In this document: positions 38,850-49,198 of the stretch, one piece after another
How positions within the stretch are numbered: position 1 is the first letter of the stretch
How the letters are laid out: every line of letters starts with the position of its first letter
Assembly (NCBI GenBank): GCA_016871255.1
Contig: VFZH01000004.1
Location: 567 to 64,566, forward strand
Length of the DNA stretch: 64,000 nucleotides
Reading direction: 5' to 3'
Origin: Acidimicrobiia bacterium
GTDB lineage: Bacteria; Acidobacteriota; Vicinamibacteria; Vicinamibacterales; UBA2999
Notes under the pieces: model-generated
What the model saw: the letters and a program-made list of their open reading frames with translations, nothing else
Told to the model about the DNA's origin: nothing
Database searches by the model: none
Made by a program: the position numbers and the translations under genes

Positions 38850-40517
38850 ATGCTCCGAGCGCTGCGTATCCGGAATCTGGCGGTGATCGAAGCCGCGGAG
38901 CTGGCGTTCGCACCCGGTTTCAACGTCCTCACCGGTGAGACGGGCGCCGGCAAGTCGATCCTGATCGAGGCCGTGGGCCTGCTGCTCGGCGCGCGCGCAT
39001 CCGGCGACATGGTGCGTACCGGCGAGGCGGAAGCCGTGATCGAAGCCGAGTTCGACCCGCCCGCTGGAACCGGCCCGCTGGTGCTCCGTCGCGAGATCAC
39101 GGCGCAGGGCCGCAGCCGCTCCTTCATCGACGGCGAGGTGGCCACGGCAGCGGCCCTTCGCGATCTCTCGCACCAGCTCGTGGAGATTCACGGGCAGCAC
39201 GAGCACCAGCTGCTCCTGAACCCGGTGACGCATCTGCCGATGCTCGACTCACACGCGGGCCTGGCCGCCGAAGCGGAGGCCGTGGCCGAGGCATGGGCGG
39301 CGCTGCGCGCGCTGGAGACCGAGATCGAACGGGCCCGCATGGACGAGCGCGAGAAGGCCGCCCGGCTCGACCTCATCGCCTTCCAGCTCGGGGAGATCGA
39401 GCGCGCGCGCCCGCAGCCGGGCGAGGACGAGGAGCTGGCCGCCACACGCCGCGTGCTCGCCCGGGCCGATCAGCTCCAGCGCCTGTCGCAGCACGCCTAC
39501 GCTGCGCTGTACGAATCCGATCACTCGGCGCTCGCAAGCCTCGGCACCGTGTGGAAGCGGCTGGAGGAGCTCTCGTCGATCGACCCGCGCTCGGCCCCGT
39601 ACCTGGAGATGCGGGACGCCGTCCGCGGCCAGCTCGACGACCTCGCCCTCTTCCTGCGCGACTACGGACTGGGCATCGACGCGTCGCCCGAACGGCTGCA
39701 GCAGGTCGAAGACCGTCTGGCGCTGCTCGAGCGCCTCAAGAAGAAGTACGGCCCCACGCTGGCAGACGTCATCGCCCGCGGCGCACAGCTCGCCGACGAG
39801 CGGCGCCGCATCGAGACCGCCGGCGCTCGTGCCGCCGAGTTCGAGGCCGAACACCACGCGGCCCGGGAGCGCTTCCGCACGCAGGCGGCGGCGCTGTCGA
39901 CAGCACGGCGTGCGGCGGCACCGGCGTTCACGAGCCGGCTCGAGACGCTGCTTGCACGGCTCGCCATGACCGATGCCCGGGTCGAAGTGCGGTTCAACGC
40001 CAGCGACACGCCGGACACACCGTGGAGCGAGCGGGGGATCGACGAGGCCGAGTTCTACGTGTCGCCCAACATCGGCGAGGATCTCCGCCCGCTGGCGCGG
40101 GTCCTGTCCGGAGGCGAGCTCTCACGGGTCATGCTGGCCCTGAAGACGATCGCCGTGTCCGACCGGCCCGGCCGGACGCTGATCTTCGACGAAGTGGACG
40201 CCGGGATCGGGGGGCGGGTGGCCGGAGTGGTGGGGGAGCAGCTCCGGATGCTGGGGTCACGGTTCCAGGTGCTGTGCGTGACGCACCTCCCGCAGATTGC
40301 CGCCTGCGCAGCCACGCAGTTCCACATCGACAAGACCGTGCGCGGCGCCCGCACGGTCACGACGGTGACGCCGCTGGACGAGGCGACCCGGGTAAGCGAG
40401 ATCGCCCGTATGATCGGAGGCTACGCCATCACGGACGAAGTCACGGCCGGCGCGCGCGAACTGCTGCGCGCGAGCCAGGCCGTCGGCGGGACACCGCAAC
40501 GGCGAAAGCGAAAGTGA
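38850..40517 (+). CDS. recN: DNA repair protein RecN
   Basis: Walker A GETGAGKSIL, a long coiled-coil middle, C-terminal LSGGELSRVMLAL and LIFDEVDAGIGG. Confidence 0.94.
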   Translation: MLRALRIRNLAVIEAAELAFAPGFNVLTGETGAGKSILIEAVGLLLGARASGDMVRTGEAEAVIEAEFDPPAGTGPLVLRREITAQGRSRSFIDGEVATAAALRDLSHQLVEIHGQHEHQLLLNPVTHLPMLDSHAGLAAEAEAVAEAWAALRALETEIERARMDEREKAARLDLIAFQLGEIERARPQPGEDEELAATRRVLARADQLQRLSQHAYAALYESDHSALASLGTVWKRLEELSSIDPRSAPYLEMRDAVRGQLDDLALFLRDYGLGIDASPERLQQVEDRLALLERLKKKYGPTLADVIARGAQLADERRRIETAGARAAEFEAEHHAARERFRTQAAALSTARRAAAPAFTSRLETLLARLAMTDARVEVRFNASDTPDTPWSERGIDEAEFYVSPNIGEDLRPLARVLSGGELSRVMLALKTIAVSDRPGRTLIFDEVDAGIGGRVAGVVGEQLRMLGSRFQVLCVTHLPQIAACAATQFHIDKTVRGARTVTTVTPLDEATRVSEIARMIGGYAITDEVTAGARELLRASQAVGGTPQRRKRK

Positions 40518-40521
40518 ATAT

Positions 40522-41892
40522 TTGGCGAAAGCGAAAGCCGGACCTGGACACCCGAGAGCTCCCGTGGCCCCTCGCTACCTGATTGAAACCTTCGGCTGCC
40601 AGATGAACGTGCACGATTCCGAGCGGATGGCCGGTCTGCTCGAGCAGGCCGGCTACGAAGCCGCGCTCGACGAGCGTGACGCGGACGTCGTGGTCATCAA
40701 CACCTGCAGTGTCCGGGAACACGCCGAGGACAAGCTGTACACACGCCTCGGAGAGATCCGGGTGCTTGGCGAGGAAACCGGCCACACGCCCGTCGTCGCC
40801 GTGACGGGCTGTGTGGCGCAGCAGGAGGGGGAGGCGCTGCTCGGCGCCACCAACGGTCGCCTGATCGACGTCGTGCTGGGCACCCAGCAACTCCGCATGC
40901 TGCCCGATCTGGTCGCCCGGGCGACGTCGAACCCGTTCCCCGAAGTGCGGATCGATCCGCAGAACGACGTCAGCTTTCCGCTCGGGATCGCCAGGCGGTC
41001 GGACCCCGTCAAGGCCTACGTGACGATCATCGAGGGCTGCAACGACCATTGCGCCTTCTGCGTGGTGCCGTCGACGCGGGGAGCCGAGCGGATGCGCCGG
41101 AAGGGCGAGATTCTCGACGAGGTGCGCGAAGCGGTCGCCTCCGGCCGCCGGGAAATCCACCTGCTCGGCCAGATCGTGAACCACTACCGGGCACCGGACG
41201 ATCCCGGATGCGACTTCGCCCGGCTCCTGCACGAGGTCGACGCCGTTCCGGGCGTGGCGCGGATCCGGTTTGCGAGCCCGCATCCCCGGCACACCTCCCG
41301 GCCGCTCATCGAAGCGATCCGGGATCTGCCGCGGGTCTGCAAGCACCTGCATCTGCCCGTCCAGTCCGGCTCCTCACGGGTCCTCGCGGCGATGCGGCGG
41401 CGCCACACCCGTGACGACTACCTCCGCCTCGTGGACGACGTCCGCGAGGGTATCCCGAAGATCCAGCTCTCGACCGATATGATCGTCGGGTTCCCGGGCG
41501 AGACGGCGGCGGACTTCGAGGACACGCTGAGCCTGACCAGGCGGGTCGGTTTCCACAGCATGTTCTCGTTCAAGTACTCACCGCGGCCGAACACGCTGGC
41601 GGGGAAGCGGCTGACCGACGACGTGCCGGAGACGGAGAAGACGGCCCGGATCGTCGTCCTCCAGTCGCTGCAGCGAGAGGTGCAGACCGCGCTGCACGCG
41701 AGGGAGGTCGGCCGGGTGGTGGACGTGCTCGTGGATGCCGCCAGCCGGCGCCGGCGCTCCGACGTCTCGGGGCGCACGAGCGGGAACACCGTGGTCAACC
41801 TGCCGGGCGACCCCGGCTGGATCGGGCGGACCGTGCCCGTGCGCATCGAGCGCGCGGGCCCGAACAGCCTGTGGGGCGTGGCTGCCGGCTGA
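40522..41892 (+). CDS. miaB: tRNA-i6A37 methylthiotransferase MiaB
   Basis: UPF0004 N-domain (ETFGCQMNVHDSERM), radical-SAM cluster CNDHCAFCVVP and a C-terminal TRAM domain. Confidence 0.94.
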   Translation: MAKAKAGPGHPRAPVAPRYLIETFGCQMNVHDSERMAGLLEQAGYEAALDERDADVVVINTCSVREHAEDKLYTRLGEIRVLGEETGHTPVVAVTGCVAQQEGEALLGATNGRLIDVVLGTQQLRMLPDLVARATSNPFPEVRIDPQNDVSFPLGIARRSDPVKAYVTIIEGCNDHCAFCVVPSTRGAERMRRKGEILDEVREAVASGRREIHLLGQIVNHYRAPDDPGCDFARLLHEVDAVPGVARIRFASPHPRHTSRPLIEAIRDLPRVCKHLHLPVQSGSSRVLAAMRRRHTRDDYLRLVDDVREGIPKIQLSTDMIVGFPGETAADFEDTLSLTRRVGFHSMFSFKYSPRPNTLAGKRLTDDVPETEKTARIVVLQSLQREVQTALHAREVGRVVDVLVDAASRRRRSDVSGRTSGNTVVNLPGDPGWIGRTVPVRIERAGPNSLWGVAAG

Positions 41893-41920
41893 GGGGCCGG
41901 AGATCAGGGACGGGGCAGCG

Positions 41921-42406
41921 ATGCTGATCGAGATGACGATCAAGGGGCTGATGGTGGATCCAATCACCAACACGCCGATCGTCCTGTTGAAGGACGCGCA
42001 GGGCGACCGTGTCCTGCCCATCTGGGTGGGGATCTTCGAGGCGAACGCCATCGCGCTGCAGATCGAGAACATCGCGATGCCTCGACCGATGACGCACGAC
42101 CTGCTGCGGAACATCATCACCGACCTCGAAGGGAACGTCGACCGGATTGTCGTGTCGGACCTGAAGGACAACACCTTCTACGCCGTGATCCACCTGACGG
42201 TCCGTGGCGAGCGCCTGGCGGTGGACGCGCGCCCGAGCGACGCGATCGCGCTGGCGCTCCGGACCCGCGCGCCGATCCTGGTGGAGGAGGCCGTCATCGA
42301 CAACGCCAAGCCTGTGGACCTGGTGACCGACCGTACCGATCCCGATCGCCTGCAGAAATGGCTGGAGAGCCTCGACCCGGACGATCTCGGGAAGTACAAG
42401 ATGTGA
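41921..42406 (+). CDS. Bifunctional nuclease family protein (DUF151)
   Basis: 161 aa. VLLKDAQGDRVLPIWVGIFEANAIA...MPRPMTHDLL...ARPSDAIALALR is typical of the family. I chose the internal ATG of track ORF 41735. Confidence 0.85.
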   Translation: MLIEMTIKGLMVDPITNTPIVLLKDAQGDRVLPIWVGIFEANAIALQIENIAMPRPMTHDLLRNIITDLEGNVDRIVVSDLKDNTFYAVIHLTVRGERLAVDARPSDAIALALRTRAPILVEEAVIDNAKPVDLVTDRTDPDRLQKWLESLDPDDLGKYKM

Positions 42407-42424
42407 ATGTCGGCCGGCCGACAT
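42407..42424 (+). terminator. 18-bp perfect palindrome directly after the nuclease stop (hairpin, no U-tract)
   Basis: ATGTCGGCCGGCCGACAT can form a 7-bp stem with a CCGG loop. It is followed by TGG rather than a T-run, so terminator function is uncertain. Confidence 0.35.
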
Positions 42425-42445
42425 TGGCGGCCGGCCACCCGCCGT

Positions 42446-42475
42446 TTGACAGCAGCGCGCGGCGGTCCCTAGAAT
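42446..42475 (+). promoter_or_regulatory. Sigma70-type promoter for parAB
   Basis: TTGACA (42446-42451), an 18-nt spacer, then TAGAAT (42470-42475), 24 nt upstream of the parA ATG. Confidence 0.5.
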
Positions 42476-42499
42476 GGCGCCACTCCCTCGGCGCCTCCC

Positions 42500-43270
42500 A
42501 TGATCGTCGCCATCGCCAACCAGAAGGGCGGGGTCGGCAAGACCACCACGGCGGTGAACCTTGCCGCTGCGCTGGCCATGCGAGGCCGGCCCACGCTGCT
42601 CATCGACCTCGACCCCCAGGCCAACAGCAGCCTCTCGTTCCTCGACCTGCGCGCGGTCGAGCGCAGTACGTACGACGCGATTGCCGACGCGCACACCACG
42701 CTCGACGACATCATCCTGCCGGCAGCGCTGGAGAACCTGTCGATCGCACCGGCCCGCATCGCGCTTGCCAAGCTCGAAGGACGCCTGGTGGGGGAGATCG
42801 ACGCGCATTACCGCCTGAAGGACAAGCTGCGGCCGCTCGTGAGCCGCTTCGCGCACGTCGTCATCGACTGCCCCCCGGCCCTCGGCCTGCTGACGCTCAA
42901 CGCCCTGGTCGCCGCAACGCACCTGCTCATCCCTATCCAGTCCTCCTACTTTGCCCTCGAAGGGACGGACGACCTCCTCGAGACGATCGAGAAGGTTCGC
43001 CAGCGGCCGAACCCGGCCCTCCAGATCCTCGGCGTCGTCATCACCATGCATGACAAGCGCACGGCGCTGGGGCGGGACATCCGGGAGCAGATCCAGAAGG
43101 TCTTCGGAGGCAAGGTCTTCAAGACCGTGATCAGCAAGAACGTCCGGCTGGAGGAGAGCCCGGCCTACAAGGAATCGATCTTCACGTACGCGCCCGACTC
43201 GGCGGGCGCCACCGACTACTACAGCCTGTGCGAGGAGGTGATCGAACGTGCCGAAGCGCGGACTGCCTGA
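42500..43270 (+). CDS. parA: ParA/Soj family chromosome partitioning ATPase
   Basis: Deviant Walker A NQKGGVGKTTT, with DLDPQ and IDCPP motifs. 256 aa. Confidence 0.93.
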   Translation: MIVAIANQKGGVGKTTTAVNLAAALAMRGRPTLLIDLDPQANSSLSFLDLRAVERSTYDAIADAHTTLDDIILPAALENLSIAPARIALAKLEGRLVGEIDAHYRLKDKLRPLVSRFAHVVIDCPPALGLLTLNALVAATHLLIPIQSSYFALEGTDDLLETIEKVRQRPNPALQILGVVITMHDKRTALGRDIREQIQKVFGGKVFKTVISKNVRLEESPAYKESIFTYAPDSAGATDYYSLCEEVIERAEARTA

Positions 43271-44084
43271 CACCCTGCGGATGCGGCATGACGAGCACTA
43301 CGTCGAGGCGCTGACCGGAGGGGCCGGTGCGCCCGTCGGCCGGGTGCTGCCGATCGACCAGCTCGATCCGAACCCCGACCAGCCGCGCCAGGTCATGGGC
43401 GATCTGTCGGAACTGATCGCCTCGGTGGTCGAAAAGGGGATCATCGAACCGCTGATCGTCCGCCGCCGTGAGGGGCGCTACCAGATCATCGCCGGCGAGC
43501 GGCGCTACCACGCGGCGGTTCAGGCCGGCCTCCGTGAGGTCCCCGTCGTCGAGCGCGACAGCGACGACGCCGAAGTGCTCGAAATCGCGCTCATCGAGAA
43601 CCTCCAGCGCAAGGACCTGACTGCCTTCGAGGAAGCCGAAGCCCTGGCCCAGTTGGCCGAGCGCTGCGGGTACACGCACGAGGAACTGGCCAGGCGGCTC
43701 GGCAAGTCGCGAACGGCCATCACCGAGGCCCTGTCGCTGAACGCCATGCCGGCTGATATCCGGAACCTCTGTCGGCTGGCCGACATCACCGCCCGATCCA
43801 CGCTGCTCCAGATCGTCCGCCAGGGTGATGCCCGCAGGATGCTGGCCCTGGTGGAACGGCTCACGGCGCAGGGGGGCGGGGCGACACGCCAGCAGGTCCG
43901 CCAGGAAACCGCGACCGAAAAGGCCGGGAAACGACCTCGCCCCTTCACCTTCAACTTCAAGCCCTCCAGCAAGTCGTTCGCGCTCCGGATGACGTTCCGG
44001 AAGGGGCGCGTGGCGCGATCGGAGATCATCGAGACCCTCGAGCAGATCCTCCGGGAACTGCGTGCCGCTCGAGATTCGGACTGA
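43248..44084 (+). CDS. parB: ParB/Spo0J family partition protein
   Basis: ParB box GERRYHAA, with IENLQRKDL and the HTH YTHEELARRLGKSRTAITEAL. GTG start overlaps the parA 3' end. The C-terminal third is atypical. Confidence 0.9.
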   Translation: MPKRGLPDTLRMRHDEHYVEALTGGAGAPVGRVLPIDQLDPNPDQPRQVMGDLSELIASVVEKGIIEPLIVRRREGRYQIIAGERRYHAAVQAGLREVPVVERDSDDAEVLEIALIENLQRKDLTAFEEAEALAQLAERCGYTHEELARRLGKSRTAITEALSLNAMPADIRNLCRLADITARSTLLQIVRQGDARRMLALVERLTAQGGGATRQQVRQETATEKAGKRPRPFTFNFKPSSKSFALRMTFRKGRVARSEIIETLEQILRELRAARDSD

Positions 44085-44169
44085 GGCCGGACCGACGAGA
44101 GGGGGACGACCGCCTCCCGCGGCGCCGTACGAGGGCAAGGCCGTTCCGGCGATTTCTCGTCCCTTCACA

Positions 44170-44197
44170 ACGTCGCATAATGTATGTTCTGTTAACT
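44170..44197 (+). other. dif-like XerC/XerD recombination site
   Basis: ACGTCGCATAA-TGTATG-TTCTGTTAACT, aligned with E. coli dif GGTGCGCATAA-TGTATA-TTATGTTAAAT, is identical at 21 of 28 positions, including an 11-nt run GCATAATGTAT and TGTTAA. It is intergenic and lies in a local AT-rich patch. Confidence 0.75.
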
Positions 44198-44273
44198 TAT
44201 CCCTCCAGCGGTGCCCGTGGCGGCCGCGACGCCCGGTCCCGCCCGCGCCATAATTGACTGCTCCGCCACGAGC

Positions 44274-46568
44274 ATGAAGACGACCCTCGACCGCTACGTC
44301 ATCCGCCAGACCCTCCTGCCGGCGTTCCTCGGCCTGCTGGTGTTCGCCTTCCTGCTCGTCGTTGACGTCCTGCTGCCAACCGCCGAAGAGCTCATCGCCA
44401 AGAACGTCCCGGCCGGCATCATCCTGACGCTGACCCTGACGCTGCTGCCGCAGGCCCTCGGCCTCGCCATCCCGATGGCGCTGCTTTTGGGGCTGCTCGT
44501 GGCCTTCGGCCGGCTGTCCACGGACCGCGAATGGGTGGCGCTCCAGGCCTGCGGCATCGGCCTGACCCGGCTCCTCTGGCCCGTCGCGTTGCTCTCGACC
44601 GTCGCGTTTGCCGCGACCTCGTACGTCCTCCTGGTCGCCCTGCCGAACGCCAACCAGAACTACCGCGAGATCATCTTCTCGATCCTGTCCACCCGGGCCG
44701 AGGGCGAGGTCAAGCCACGCGTCTTCTTCCAGGAGTTCCCCAACCTGGTGCTGTACGTCCGCGATCTGCCGCGGTCAGGTGGCTGGCAAGGCGTCTTCCT
44801 GGCCGACTCCCGACCCGGCCAGCCCCAGGCGATCTACGTCGCCCGGCAGGGCCGTGTCGTCATCAACCGGGACCTGCGCCGCGTCGAAATGGTCCTCGAG
44901 GACGGCGGCAGCCACATGCTGAGCGACGCCGGCTCGTATGAGATCTCGAGTTTCGACCGGACCATCCTCAGCGTGAATCCCGAAACGGTCTTCCCGCGCA
45001 TCGGACCCGGCAGGGGCGAACGCGAGATGGCGATTCCGGAGCTGCGGGAACGCATCGTGGAGCTGGAACGGCAGGGGCTCTCCACGGTCACCCCGCGGGT
45101 GGAGATTCACAAGAAGTTCGCGATCCCCTTCGCGTGCCTGGTCTTCGGGCTGATCGGCCTCTCGCTCGGCGCGAGCACCCGCCGTGAGGGCCGGCTGGCG
45201 AGCTTCGTCGTCGGCATCGTCGTGATCTTCACTTACTACGTCCTGCTGGAGTCTTCGTCGAACCTGGCGCGCGGCGGCTTCCTTCCGCCCTGGCTCGCGG
45301 TCTGGCTCCCCAATGTCGTCTTCGGCACGCTGGGGATCTGGCTGTTCGTCCGCCGGCTGCGCGCCATCGGCCGCTCCTCGCGCTGGGCAATCGGCCTGGC
45401 GGCGCTGCAGGCCCGGCTGCCCGGCCGCCCGGCCCGACCGGCGGCACCGACACTGCTGGGCACCCGTCTCACCTTCCCGCGGCTGCTCGACCGCTATGTC
45501 ATGCTGCTCTACGGGCGCATCTTCGCGATCGCCGGCGCTGCGCTCGTCGGGGTGTTCCACCTCTCGACGTTCATCGACCTGTCCGACGAGGTACTCCGCG
45601 GAGACGCGACCTGGTCCCAGCTCGGCGGGCACGTCTGGTTCGCCACCCCGCAGGCGCTCTACTACGTCCTTCCGATCTCCGTGCTCCTCGCCACGCTGAC
45701 CACGATCGGCATGCTCACGCGCCACAGCGAGCTGGTCGTCATGAAGGCGTGCGGCATGAGCCTGTACCGCGTGGCCGTGCCGCTCGTCCTGACCGCGGCC
45801 GTGGTGTCCGGCGTGCTGTGGCAGCTCCAGGAGCGGCTGCTGGGCCCGGCCAACTACCGCGCCGAAGGCCTGCGCCACGTGATCCGTGGCCGGTCGCCGG
45901 AAACCTTCGACGTGCTGAGCCGGCGCTGGGTGACCGGCACCGGAGGGGAGATCTACAACTACGACTTCTTCAACCCCCGGGAACGCGTACTCGGAGGCCT
46001 GTCGGTGTACCGCCTGTCCCCTGACATGTCGCAGGTGGAGGGACGGACGTTTGCCGAGCGCGCCTCCTTTGCGCCGGATGCTCCGGCCGCCACCACCGTG
46101 TGGCACGCAGAGCGCGGGTGGGCGCGCGACTTCTCGGGTCCCGGCGTGAGCTACGAGCCGTTCGACGCGATGGCGCTCGACCTCGAACCGGCGGACTACT
46201 TCTCGACGCAGGAACCGAACCCCGACTTCATGAGCTACGGCCAGCTGCGCGACTACATCGCCCGGCTCGACGCGGGGGGACTGGACGTCATCGAACAGCG
46301 CGTGGCGCTCGAGCGCAAGGTGGCGTTTCCCCTCGCCACGCTCATCATGACGCTGATCGGCGTCCCCTTCGCCGTCACCACCGGCAGCCGCGGCGCGATG
46401 TACGGCATCGGTGTCGGGATCGTGCTCGCGTTCCTCTACTGGGGGGCGATGAGCGTCTTCGCGGCGCTGGGGACGGCGGGCCTGATGGAGCCGGCGCTGG
46501 CAGCCTGGTCCCCGAACGCCCTGTTCGGCGCAGGCGCCGGCTATCTCGTCCTCACGGCCCGGACCTGA
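44274..46568 (+). CDS. Fused LptF-LptG LPS export permease (two YjgP/YjgQ modules in one ORF)
   Basis: 764 aa. The first module starts LDRYVIRQTLLPAFLG and the second starts LLDRYVMLLYGRIFAIAG at about residue 400. Each has TM helices flanking a periplasmic beta-jellyroll-sized insert. Confidence 0.85.
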   Translation: MKTTLDRYVIRQTLLPAFLGLLVFAFLLVVDVLLPTAEELIAKNVPAGIILTLTLTLLPQALGLAIPMALLLGLLVAFGRLSTDREWVALQACGIGLTRLLWPVALLSTVAFAATSYVLLVALPNANQNYREIIFSILSTRAEGEVKPRVFFQEFPNLVLYVRDLPRSGGWQGVFLADSRPGQPQAIYVARQGRVVINRDLRRVEMVLEDGGSHMLSDAGSYEISSFDRTILSVNPETVFPRIGPGRGEREMAIPELRERIVELERQGLSTVTPRVEIHKKFAIPFACLVFGLIGLSLGASTRREGRLASFVVGIVVIFTYYVLLESSSNLARGGFLPPWLAVWLPNVVFGTLGIWLFVRRLRAIGRSSRWAIGLAALQARLPGRPARPAAPTLLGTRLTFPRLLDRYVMLLYGRIFAIAGAALVGVFHLSTFIDLSDEVLRGDATWSQLGGHVWFATPQALYYVLPISVLLATLTTIGMLTRHSELVVMKACGMSLYRVAVPLVLTAAVVSGVLWQLQERLLGPANYRAEGLRHVIRGRSPETFDVLSRRWVTGTGGEIYNYDFFNPRERVLGGLSVYRLSPDMSQVEGRTFAERASFAPDAPAATTVWHAERGWARDFSGPGVSYEPFDAMALDLEPADYFSTQEPNPDFMSYGQLRDYIARLDAGGLDVIEQRVALERKVAFPLATLIMTLIGVPFAVTTGSRGAMYGIGVGIVLAFLYWGAMSVFAALGTAGLMEPALAAWSPNALFGAGAGYLVLTART

Positions 46569-48270
46569 CTTCCCCGCCCAGCCCTTCGATCCAGAACAGG
46601 CCGCTCGAACCGGAGGCGGTGTTGACGGTGTCCACGACGAACAGCAGGTCGCGCACCAGGTCGAGGGGCGGCAGCTGCTCGCTCGTGTCCTTGAAGGGCC
46701 GCAGGTCGTCCAGGTCGATCGACACGTCGCGGGTGACGTCGGCCACGTAGACCGATCGCTGCCAGCGCTCCCCCGTCTCGCTCGCGGGCACGCGGAGCTG
46801 CACCGACACGCGCATGGGGCGATCGGCGCCAATGCGGAACCGCAGGCGGGCGAACCCGGCCAGTCCGTCCGGCAGCGGAACGGCGGCCGCAGCGTAGGGG
46901 TGGCTGCTCTCCGCGCCTGAGATCGCGTACCGGATCTGCGCCTGCACGCCTCCCGACAGCCCCCGCCCTTCGTCCAGCGCCGCGTCCGAGCCCTCGCTGT
47001 GCTCGATCGCCCATTCCGCGATATCCGCCCCGAGGGGCGTGACGGCGCCGCTCTGTTCGGCGCTCGCCCTCGGCTCTGCCTGGCCGGATGGGTCCTCCCG
47101 GCCGACGTAGATCGGGTTCGACAACATCCACGGCACCGGCGGCTGCCCGGGCGCCCCAGGCAGCTCCACCTCGACCCGATAGACCGCCGGCACGGCCTCG
47201 ACAACACGGTCCAGCCAGGTGCCGGCAACCGGTTCGAGGCGCCGGCCATCCTGCACCAGAACGATGCGGGCCGTCGAAGGCGCGTGGATGCGTACCTGCA
47301 GCCGCACGGGTCCGTCGATCGGCAGCGCATCGCCGGCTGCGGCGGTGAGGTTGCCGCTCGACGCCTCGAACCGCAGGGCCCCCGGCGTGGCCGCGGCGTC
47401 GATGACCGAGTACACGCGGCCGGCCGTGAGCGCGCCGAGGACGGCGGCGCTGTCGGCGGCGGCGTCGCCGGACAGCACCGTCCCCTGCAGTCCGATCGAG
47501 AACGCGCGGAAGACCGCCTCGTAGCCGGGGACGCGCAGCGCGAGCGCATCGGTGCGCGACGCCTGTGCCCCCTCCCCCACCAGCCGCAGGCGGGCGTGCG
47601 CGTCGCTTCCTGCCACCGCCACGATCCGGCGGGCTGCGGTCAGCGCGTCCCACCGCGCCAGCGTGGCATCCGGCCGGTCGAGCACACGCCCCAGGGACTC
47701 CGGTGATCGGAGCAGGTACGTCAACGCCAGGCGGGCGATCTGGCTGCGGGGCTCGTCCCGCCATTCGCTGTCCCCGTTCAGCCACTCGAGCGCGTCGATC
47801 GGCTGGTCCCACGCGCTCCATCGGAGCGAGCGTCTCGCCGAATCCGGATGGGCGGCCACGGCGAATCCACCGAGGCGGTGCACGTCCTCGACGACGTCGC
47901 GCCCGTCGCCACCGAGCCGGTACGGCGCCTCACCGAGGCCGAGCGCGACCAGGTGGCCCTGGTTGGTGCTGATCTCGACGGCGTCGATGACCAGCGCGCC
48001 GGACCGGTAGGCCGGCGGCTCGGGCGGTCGCGTGCCGTCGCCATGGTCGGTGACCACGACGAACTGGAGTCCGGCCCGCGCGGCGGCTTCCGCCACGTCG
48101 TCGATGGAGCCACCGCCGTCGGAACGGTCCGTGTGCACGTGAAACACGCCGTGCACGGGGCTCCCGAGCGGCGGCGGCACCGAGCCGAGCTGCCGCGCCG
48201 GCGGCGGCAGGAGCGACCAGACACCGGTGAGGCCGGCCAGCAGTGCGATCCCGAGGAGGCGCCGGGTCAT
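46552..48270 (-). CDS. PHP-domain metallohydrolase (CehA/McbA-like) with a large uncharacterised C-terminal region
   Basis: Signal-like N-terminus; PHP motifs HVHTDRSDGGGS and VVVTDHGD. The remaining roughly 400 aa have no motif I recognise. Confidence 0.75.
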   Translation of the reverse strand: MTRRLLGIALLAGLTGVWSLLPPPARQLGSVPPPLGSPVHGVFHVHTDRSDGGGSIDDVAEAAARAGLQFVVVTDHGDGTRPPEPPAYRSGALVIDAVEISTNQGHLVALGLGEAPYRLGGDGRDVVEDVHRLGGFAVAAHPDSARRSLRWSAWDQPIDALEWLNGDSEWRDEPRSQIARLALTYLLRSPESLGRVLDRPDATLARWDALTAARRIVAVAGSDAHARLRLVGEGAQASRTDALALRVPGYEAVFRAFSIGLQGTVLSGDAAADSAAVLGALTAGRVYSVIDAAATPGALRFEASSGNLTAAAGDALPIDGPVRLQVRIHAPSTARIVLVQDGRRLEPVAGTWLDRVVEAVPAVYRVEVELPGAPGQPPVPWMLSNPIYVGREDPSGQAEPRASAEQSGAVTPLGADIAEWAIEHSEGSDAALDEGRGLSGGVQAQIRYAISGAESSHPYAAAAVPLPDGLAGFARLRFRIGADRPMRVSVQLRVPASETGERWQRSVYVADVTRDVSIDLDDLRPFKDTSEQLPPLDLVRDLLFVVDTVNTASGSSGLFWIEGLGGEVRSGP

Positions 48271-48274
48271 GTGG

Positions 48275-49198
48275 TCATGATCTCGGATGAAAGCGATCGT
48301 AGACGGCCCGCAGGCGATGTTCGAGCACGTGCGTGTAGATCTGCGTGGTGGAGAGGTTGGCGTGGCCGAGCATCATCTGGATAGCCCGCAGATCCGCGCC
48401 CCGCTCCAGCAGGTGCGTGGCGAACGAGTGGCGGAGCACGTGTGGACTGAGGGGAGACGAGATGCCCGCGCCCCGTCCGTACGCTTTCAGGATCTTCCAG
48501 AATCCCACGCGCGTGAGACCTGCGCCGCCCCGGGCATTGACGAAGAGCCGGGGACTCGTCCGCCGCACCAGCAGCGCCGGCCGGCCGTCGCGCGCGTAGC
48601 GCTCGACCCACCGGCCTGCTTCATCACCGATCGGCACGATGCGCTGTTTCGACCCCTTTCCCGTGCACGTGAGGAACGACGACTCGAGGTTGACGTCCGC
48701 CGGGCGCAGCGACACCAGCTCTGACACGCGCATCCCTGTGGCGTACAGGAGCTCGATCAGCGCGCGGTCGCGCAGGCCGCGCGGCGTGGACACGTCCGGC
48801 TGCTCGATGATCCGATCCACTTCCTCCACGGAGAGGAAGCGCGGCAGCGTCTGCCACGCGCGCGGCGGCCGGAGGTCGTCGGCCGGACTGGCCGCGATCC
48901 GTCCCTCGCGCAGCAGGAAGCGATAGAAGCCGCGGAAGCAGGCCACCGCCCTCGCCACCGATCGCGGCGAGCGCCCCGCGGCCATCAGATCGCGAACCAG
49001 GGACTCGAGGTCAGGCCGGGCCAGTTCCACGAGCGGTGTCGTACGCCCCGCGGCGAAGCGCGCCAGCAGCGTCATGTCCCGCCCGTAGCTCTCGACCGAG
49101 CTGACGGCGAGCCGCCGCTCGACCGTCAGATGTGTCAGGTAGGCGTCCACGTCGTGCCACGGCGTTCCGTCTCGTCGGGACTCTCCAGTAGGAGCCAC
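48275..49198 (-). CDS. xerD: Site-specific tyrosine recombinase XerD
   Basis: 307 aa with catalytic motifs ATGMRVSEL, SPHVLRHSFATHLLERGADLRAIQMMLGHANLSTTQIYTH, and a C-terminus ending HPRS, as in XerD. Confidence 0.92.
   Translation of the reverse strand: MAPTGESRRDGTPWHDVDAYLTHLTVERRLAVSSVESYGRDMTLLARFAAGRTTPLVELARPDLESLVRDLMAAGRSPRSVARAVACFRGFYRFLLREGRIAASPADDLRPPRAWQTLPRFLSVEEVDRIIEQPDVSTPRGLRDRALIELLYATGMRVSELVSLRPADVNLESSFLTCTGKGSKQRIVPIGDEAGRWVERYARDGRPALLVRRTSPRLFVNARGGAGLTRVGFWKILKAYGRGAGISSPLSPHVLRHSFATHLLERGADLRAIQMMLGHANLSTTQIYTHVLEHRLRAVYDRFHPRS

Follow-up and report, generated by a model that had tools for sequence, protein, structure and literature searches.

What does a parA-parB gene pair do right beside a dif site? 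Textbooks treat ParABS as a device of the replication origin. We addressed this question for a 64,000-nucleotide stretch of DNA, from here on called the window and always taken at its full length, which lies on contig C4 of a Vicinamibacterales (Acidobacteriota) metagenome-assembled genome (MAG; 3.9 Mb in 243 contigs, genome G000). Within 7 kb the window holds a gene pair that we call parA2 and parB2, a dif site and xerD. The original prediction for this DNA had placed a parA-parB pair, a dif-like site 86 bp after the parB stop and xerD in such an interval, and all of them are indeed there. Our reading, which we hold to be probable, is that the window contains the replication terminus, with a genuine dif beside a complete second ParABS-type system that consists of ParA2, ParB2 and palindromes termed parS2 and that would act in the terminus region. 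We have little doubt that a terminus ParABS-type system exists; that it specifically positions or segregates the terminus is a tentative proposal.

The dif site (44170-44197, + strand) has an 11-6-11 layout, in which two 11-bp arms with partial dyad symmetry, the XerC arm ACGTCGCATAA and the XerD arm TTCTGTTAACT, enclose the 6-bp central region TGTATG. The XerC arm faces parB2. The site is an AT-rich 28-mer within DNA of 70% GC, the value of the window, and the sole match in the 3.9-Mb genome, which goes far beyond what chance would give. It agrees at 21 of 28 positions (~75% identity) with the E. coli dif. Using a clade-specific search pattern (GTCNNATAAYNNNNGTTATGTTAAC) we found dif just 3' of parB2 in 77 of 80 related loci, which form our close comparison set from the Vicinamibacterales, and exactly once per genome in all nine long-read relatives. 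The recombination machinery is encoded as well. The xerD gene (48275-49198, - strand) scores 347.5 bits against the NCBIfam XerD family (cut-off 329.6), contig C2 carries a XerC-like gene whose best family is XerC (274.7 bits versus a cut-off of 335.15, with the C-terminal 249 residues only), and a fragment with the FtsK motor and gamma domain is found on contig C228. By its sequence, its uniqueness and the presence of this machinery, the window site is a genuine XerC/XerD dif site.

Following a suggestion of the original prediction we mapped dnaA, which in G000 lies on a contig other than that of the window. The orthologous locus is located at 0.42-0.58 of the replicon from dnaA (dnaA to parB2, 0.47-0.58) in ten genomes of several families that are complete or almost so (G082, G119, G053, G102, G169, G195, G205, G011, G091 and G048). 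For a relative with a 4.9-Mb genome (G001), in which 2.54 Mb separate dnaA (1.32 Mb) from dif (3.86 Mb), we determined the GC skew in twenty 20-kb stretches along a 4.05-Mb contig, keeping plus- and minus-strand genes separate. As far as 1.10 Mb the strand-independent skew stayed negative; it was close to zero at 1.25 Mb and positive between 1.38 and 3.79 Mb, and beyond 3.90 Mb it had returned to negative values. The replication-linked skew of this genome flips at dnaA and again at dif. The skew switch that had been expected for the site is thus borne out in G001; in the window itself only one half of it is visible, with a skew of -0.043 to the right of dif and of +0.0025, i.e. about zero, to its left.

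The coding strand also switches at the site. To its left 70% of the coding DNA is on the + strand and to its right 67% is on the - strand (predicted: 70% and 64%), percentages that rest on crude gene calls. Genes and replication are co-oriented in the normal sense in G000, but the bias is weak, with ~55% on the G-rich strand genome-wide. The strand pattern of 64 kb alone is therefore not strong evidence. The position of the terminus is established from the relatives, and the window alone is insufficient for it. An apparent excess of coding on the lagging strand of G001, obtained with crude open reading frame (ORF) calls, was rejected as sampling noise, since the strand-corrected analysis and a contig test in G000 show weak normal co-orientation. 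Polar octamers resembling FtsK-orienting polar sequences (KOPS) did not stand out in 400 kb of G001 for which the replichore polarity is known, in an underpowered search (best z = 3.7 among ~65,000 words), and none switched at the window dif. As a separate observation, the genome G169 consists of two contigs of 2.66 Mb and ~1.0 Mb, which may be two replicons. Both dnaA and the ParABS2/dif locus are on the larger contig, at opposite positions.

Is the pair beside dif then the origin pair, moved to the terminus? A tblastn search of the whole genome located a second parA-parB pair on contig C11, whose products ParA1 and ParB1 are 47% and 44% identical to ParA2 and ParB2, respectively. There the gene order is mnmG-rsmG-parA1-parB1, with a consensus parS (TGTTCCACGTGAAACA) just 5' of parA1 and with dnaA-dnaN-gyrB 8 kb off. 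The window pair is a second, divergent ParA/ParB paralogue and not the origin pair relocated. The first of the two options in the original prediction, a terminus-proximal parAB at converging replichores, thus holds for the place, given that the locus lies opposite dnaA in the ten genomes, but not for the identity of the pair. A relocation would mean that the sole chromosomal parAB has moved to the terminus and that segregation works via an origin-proximal parS or with no origin-side system at all. While the adjacency of parAB and dif and a window free of canonical parS would suit this idea, it is hardly credible in view of the full canonical set on C11. It is further contradicted by a second ParB match ~13 kb from dnaA in G195 and G205, by a recognition helix of ParB2 that departs from the parS-reading consensus (see below), and by the canonical parS, which with one mismatch allowed was confined in six relatives to places 8-30 kb from dnaA, with no control matches. 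On the window contig no canonical parS was found even at three mismatches. The origin-side site of G000 is at C11:18407. In the Vicinamibacterales relatives that were checked (G001, G053 and G119) the origin-side parS reads TGTTCCACGTGGAACA, a perfect palindrome that departs from the textbook consensus by a single base and is present in one or two copies per genome, 8-9 kb from dnaA.

The proteins encoded beside dif have the make-up of a partition pair. The parA2 gene (42500-43270, + strand) encodes a 256-residue Soj-type ParA ATPase (Pfam AAA_31, 7.5e-52; CbiA, 6e-28) with the deviant Walker A motif NQKGGVGKTT at residues 7-16. Its best solved relatives are 8RAY ('ParA family protein', 2.5e-58) and 1WCV ('segregation protein', 2e-53), the latter presumably the Soj protein of T. 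thermophilus. By these matches ParA2 is an ordinary Soj-type ATPase. It also matches the MipZ family, albeit weakly (3.9e-11). This match bears on an alternative in which ParA2/ParB2 uses the terminus as a landmark for the division site, in the manner of MipZ or PomZ, or for loading or blocking SMC, instead of moving the terminus. ParB-parS complexes load SMC, and XerD sites in the B. subtilis terminus unload it, and a system specific to the terminus would suit such a task. However, the match of ParA2 to generic Soj/ParA proteins is far stronger than that to MipZ, and we regard a landmark function as unlikely.

The parB2 gene (43248-44084, + strand) encodes 278 residues from a GTG start, which overlaps the end of parA2 by 23 nt (43248-43270) and is kept in 79 of the 80 related loci. 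The conserved overlapping start suggests that the two genes are translationally coupled. ParB2 matches the Pfam families ParB_N (1.2e-27) and HTH_ParB (3.2e-14), and its motifs for binding and hydrolysis of cytidine triphosphate (CTP), DQPRQ, GERRYHAA and ENLQRKDL, are intact. In 40 orthologues from Vicinamibacterales GERRY, ENLQRKDL and QPRQ do not vary at all, and 66 sequences drawn from the whole phylum also show them conserved. An AlphaFold (AF2) model with a predicted local distance difference test score (pLDDT) of 76 matches the C. crescentus ParB-parS structure 6T1F with a target TM-score of 0.80 and a root-mean-square deviation of 2.8 Å, and the C-terminus is predicted to fold as beta-beta-alpha (pLDDT 70-84). 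Fold model and motifs mark ParB2 as a real ParB, with a predicted C-terminal dimerisation domain. The motifs for loading with CTP, for spreading and for stimulation of ParA by the N-terminal peptide are present, and ParB2 may be capable of all three.

ParB2 differs from its origin-side counterpart where the two proteins would read DNA. Its recognition helix is GKSRTAITEALSLN (RTAITEALSLN) versus GRERSTVANYLRLL (RSTVANYLRLL) in ParB1. The N-terminus is distinctive, too (KRGLP...MRHDEHYVE). Its R-G-L-P is invariant in the 40 close orthologues and resembles the canonical ParB peptide LG(R/K)GL, while ParB1 has a canonical LGKGL N-terminus together with GERRWRAA. Both the altered helix and the altered N-terminus of ParB2 are kept in the 40 close orthologues and in the 66 sequences from across the phylum. 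Against solved ParB proteins, ParB1 reaches 216 bits (M. xanthus ParB), far more than the 127 bits of ParB2 with its best solved relative.

A count of k-mers common to the 80 related loci revealed a 16-bp palindrome that we term parS2. The original prediction had seen no convincing parS in this DNA, which is correct for the canonical parS but missed two palindromes at 42408 and 43770. The first, parS2-a (42408-42423), is the perfect palindrome TGTCGGCCGGCCGACA (20 bp with its flanks, AATGTCGGCCGGCCGACATT, 42406-42425) and a candidate loading site of ParB2. The second, parS2-b (43770-43785), reads TGTCGGCTGGCCGACA and lies inside parB2, where it covers the codons C-R-L-A-D-I. These two sites at the operon are the sole occurrences of parS2 in the 3.9 Mb of the genome when up to one mismatch is allowed. 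The motif is present in all 80 related loci, and both the intergenic place of parS2-a and the codon position of parS2-b recur in most of them; the former is also seen in other families and the latter in many distant loci. Because intergenic copies exist, the motif is not a mere by-product of coding.

For a wider view we fetched a distant comparison set of 60 loci from ~45 other acidobacterial families. About 44 of them contain parS2, including loci from genomes of 32-45% GC. Across distant loci the arms of the consensus TGTCGGC-NN-GCCGACA are invariant while the central dinucleotide varies, and the site sits in the spacer between parA2 and the preceding BFN gene, inside parB2 or just 3' of parB2. 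In a survey of 201 sampled Acidobacteriota genomes, of which ~118 have a ParB2 orthologue aligning over its full length, a perfect parS2 was found in 86 of the 118 genomes with ParB2 but in only 1 of the 83 without it. The control, a reversed pattern, occurred in 5 of 201. From this co-occurrence, parS2 is likely the own centromere of ParB2. Two orthogonal ParA-ParB-palindrome sets are present on one chromosome, one by dnaA and one by dif.

In complete genomes perfect parS2 sites were found only around the parA2B2/dif locus, mostly as one to three sites at the operon. A few genomes carry more of them over a larger region (4-7 sites across 80-130 kb in G169 and G119): four perfect sites from 39 kb upstream to 14 kb downstream of the locus in G169, five perfect and two near-perfect sites from 53 kb upstream to 77 kb downstream in G119, and nine sites (up to one mismatch) in G205, all within ~1.1 Mb around the locus and several of them ~100 kb apart. 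In family f69 (G205, contig C1, 3.17-3.72 Mb; G195, contig C1, 0.74-1.07 Mb) we also observed an array of parS2-like sites across the terminus region, with a spacing of roughly 85-105 kb. These sites share a GTCGGCYGGCCGAC core, their outer T/A being often changed, and the array resembles the layout of a Ter macrodomain.

How stable is the arrangement? As the original prediction had proposed, we compared the gene order in relatives. The flanking genes recN, miaB and lptFG have the same order in all 80 related loci and across ~45 families, and the block miaB-BFN-parA2-parB2 is kept nearly everywhere in the phylum, with the BFN gene always preceding parA2 (loci L107-L166). Among the 60 distant loci, dif is found 20-1560 bp past parB2 in ~36. 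Almost every locus from Vicinamibacterales has xerD at most 5-9 kb away from parB2, and in several other families the distance is 0.8-3 kb.

The conserved surroundings speak against a second use that had been suggested for the site, namely as an accessory Xer site or as the junction of an integrative mobile element exploiting Xer (IMEX) or of a plasmid, with parAB2 as mobile cargo. In its favour, parABS systems are found on plasmids, some of which integrate at dif. The divergence of ParB2 also fits, and in G205 a hybrid half-dif adjoins parB2, as described below. On the other hand, there is a single dif-like site per genome with no second flanking copy, the flanks are housekeeping genes in identical order in 80 of 80 loci and in ~45 families, and dif coincides with the skew switch and is located opposite dnaA. 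A search for homologues of ParB2 yielded solely near relatives from soil (66-79% identity, generic names). Plasmid ParB proteins are at best ~40% identical, no closer than chromosomal ones, and thus give no sign of a recent plasmid ancestry. We regard mobile cargo as very unlikely, and the phylum-wide conserved arrangement is at odds with the suggested IMEX or accessory site. As the evolutionary origin of ParA2/ParB2 an ancient domesticated plasmid is possible.

The site itself has been less static than its neighbourhood. With respect to parB2, dif is in '-' orientation in 56 and in '+' orientation in 18 loci including the window (loci L006-L085), and this distribution requires at least five changes on the ParA2+ParB2 tree. 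The inverted unit is the dif site alone, ~30 bp, with the spacer between parB2 and lptFG or the GH57 gene (see below) unchanged. A dif site is reported to work in either orientation, and small terminus-centred inversions may be neutral. Because dif never drifts away from parB2 despite these flips, the proximity of the two appears to be under selection. A different kind of rearrangement was seen at locus L153 (G205, contig C1, ~3.664 Mb; ~4927 of the oriented locus), where a hybrid site GGTCTGATAATGTCCA|GTGTGTCGACACT adjoins parB2. Its left half is the XerC arm of dif in G195, a sister genome, and the right half is of foreign sequence; the site has the look of a junction formed by an element that integrated through Xer. 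Such a junction may account for the position of the parS2-like sites of G205, most of which are on the opposite side of parB2 from those of G195.

A more modest role than partitioning is conceivable for ParB2. It could act locally and mainly to regulate, in a CTP-dependent way and as KorB or VirB do, the transcription of its own operon and perhaps of the neighbouring genes, with its closeness to dif being inherited gene order. At 42446-42475 (+ strand), 5' of parA2, we found a sigma-70-like promoter, TTGACA-18-TAGAAT, which matches the consensus at 11 of 12 positions (one match versus 0.1 expected in shuffled sequences; a consensus match only) and ends 25 bp upstream of the parA2 ATG. The palindrome parS2-a ends 23 bp ahead of its -35 element. 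Since parS2-a abuts the operon promoter, the layout suggests that ParB2 autoregulates parA2B2. The one to three parS2 sites of most genomes, all at the operon, and the equally conserved neighbours miaB, BFN and lptFG would agree with a regulator, too. Yet almost every ParB2 has a Soj-type ParA as its partner, several lineages spread parS2 over 80 kb to 1 Mb, far from the operon, and dif stays tens to hundreds of bp from the parB2 stop across deep divergence in spite of its at least five flips. We judge a mainly regulatory ParB2 to be improbable, somewhat more so than the landmark function discussed above.

Besides this regulator idea, several observations weigh against a dedicated terminus system. 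For about a third of the distant ParB2 loci a search of 4 kb yielded no dif, and the pattern used gave no match anywhere in families f29 and f11. The dif sequence of these two families may differ from the pattern, and their parB2 is still opposite dnaA. The adjacency to dif may therefore not hold everywhere. Some lineages can do without the system, given that ~40% of the sampled Acidobacteriota are without ParB2, and the tight linkage could in part be inherited gene order, as miaB-BFN-parA2-parB2 and lptFG are conserved as well. In the 243-contig MAG of the window itself the distance from dnaA to the locus is not measurable. Finally, we infer all of the binding of ParB2 to parS2, the CTP-dependent spreading, the stimulation of ParA2 and the effect on the terminus or on Xer recombination.

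With these points in mind, a terminus-located ParABS-type system could work as follows. ParB2 would load at parS2 as a CTP-gated sliding clamp and spread over the adjoining DNA. The window dif is 0.4-1.8 kb from the two parS2 sites; since parS2-b and dif are separated by just 384 bp, the zone covered by spreading ParB2 would necessarily take in dif. The next step, positioning or separating the terminus region under its coat of ParB2, would fall to ParA2. As a result, dif would be held where septal FtsK and XerCD act, or the sister termini would be pulled apart after dimer resolution. The conserved BFN gene ahead of parA2 may contribute a third part to the system or may simply be a neighbour whose place is conserved.

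For the Acidobacteriota as a whole we advance, with some reserve, the hypothesis of a second ParABS that is dedicated to the terminus and couples its handling to XerCD-FtsK as a counterpart of MatP/matS, the sites forming in some families a Ter-domain array of 0.1-1 Mb. A full-text literature search, which left most subscription journals outside, turned up no description of a ParABS at the terminus or of parAB next to dif. To our knowledge, MatP is confined to a narrow group, and the organisation of the terminus outside the enterobacteria is largely open. If the hypothesis is true, the machine made of a ParB CTP clamp and ParA has been recruited to the chromosome pole opposite the origin and fixed beside dif across a major soil phylum. 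The question can be tested directly, as protein, site sequence and expected location are defined and complete genomes carry the system. For annotators, parAB is an unsafe marker of oriC in Acidobacteriota. ParB2 and parS2 would also be a new orthogonal pair usable for labelling DNA loci.

The remaining genes of the locus provide context. To the left, recN (38850-40517) is followed by miaB, a MiaB/RimO-type radical-SAM gene (40522-41892), and by the left-hand neighbour of parA2, a gene with a BFN (bifunctional nuclease, PF02577) domain (41735-42406, + strand). The ORF start of the latter overlaps miaB, and the true start is probably downstream of it; parS2-a begins 2 bp past its stop. To the right, a fused lptF/lptG permease gene (44211-46568, + strand), the conserved right-hand neighbour of dif, begins 14 bp after dif, and a weak PHP-domain gene on the minus strand lies between it and xerD. 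Many relatives have a GH57 glycosyl hydrolase gene between dif and lptFG that converges on parB2 (L006, 11020-13224, - strand; L046, 11157-13406, - strand) and that is absent from the window. This 2.2-kb gene had been considered as ftsK, which was rejected given that it encodes the GH57 glycosyl hydrolase.

How does the window system compare with known ones? With the canonical chromosomal ParABS of B. subtilis, T. thermophilus, C. crescentus and M. xanthus it shares the Soj-type ATPase, a three-domain ParB with the motifs GERRxxA and ENLQR and a helix-turn-helix (HTH), the overlapping genes, and 16-bp palindromes in or next to the operon, one of them inside parB2. In B. subtilis, too, a parS lies inside the parB gene, spo0J. 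By its ParA, its ParB CTPase, its HTH and its nearby palindromes, the presumed binding sites, the window pair belongs to the ParABS kind. It differs in its place beside dif, in a recognition helix and an N-terminal peptide of its own and in the site that it would read, TGTCGGC-NN-GCCGACA instead of TGTTNCACGTGAAACA. The canonical combination of an origin-type location and recognition of TGTTNCACGTGAAACA is found for the pair on C11 and not for the window pair. Several orthogonal ParAB pairs, each with its own parS, are also known from multipartite genomes (V. cholerae chromosome 2; Burkholderia chromosomes 2 and 3). There they serve the origins of separate replicons, whereas here both are on one chromosome, at opposite replication poles. 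As part of a XerC/XerD-dif-FtsK system the window dif is ordinary, i.e. 28 bp long, unique, opposite dnaA and accompanied by XerD, a XerC-like protein and FtsK gamma; unusual is that it abuts a partition operon and has repeatedly been inverted in place.

A precedent for the change in specificity is Noc with its binding sites (NBS) in Firmicutes, likewise a ParB duplicate whose recognition helix was retargeted to a new 16-bp palindrome while the CTPase clamp motifs were kept. Noc lacks a dedicated ParA and possesses a membrane-targeting helix; it is encoded near the origin, and its scattered binding sites spare the terminus. Unlike Noc, ParB2 has its own ParA and terminus-only sites. With regard to the sites, there is a likeness to MatP/matS of E. 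coli and relatives, in which palindromes are confined to the terminus around dif, as are the parS2 sites that G205, G119 and G169 spread over 0.1-1 Mb. MatP is, however, an unrelated ribbon-helix-helix/coiled-coil protein without an ATPase, and most ParB2 genomes have one to three sites. By analogy, ParA2/ParB2 might play a MatP-like role, in which the terminus would be kept in place for late segregation and dimer resolution.

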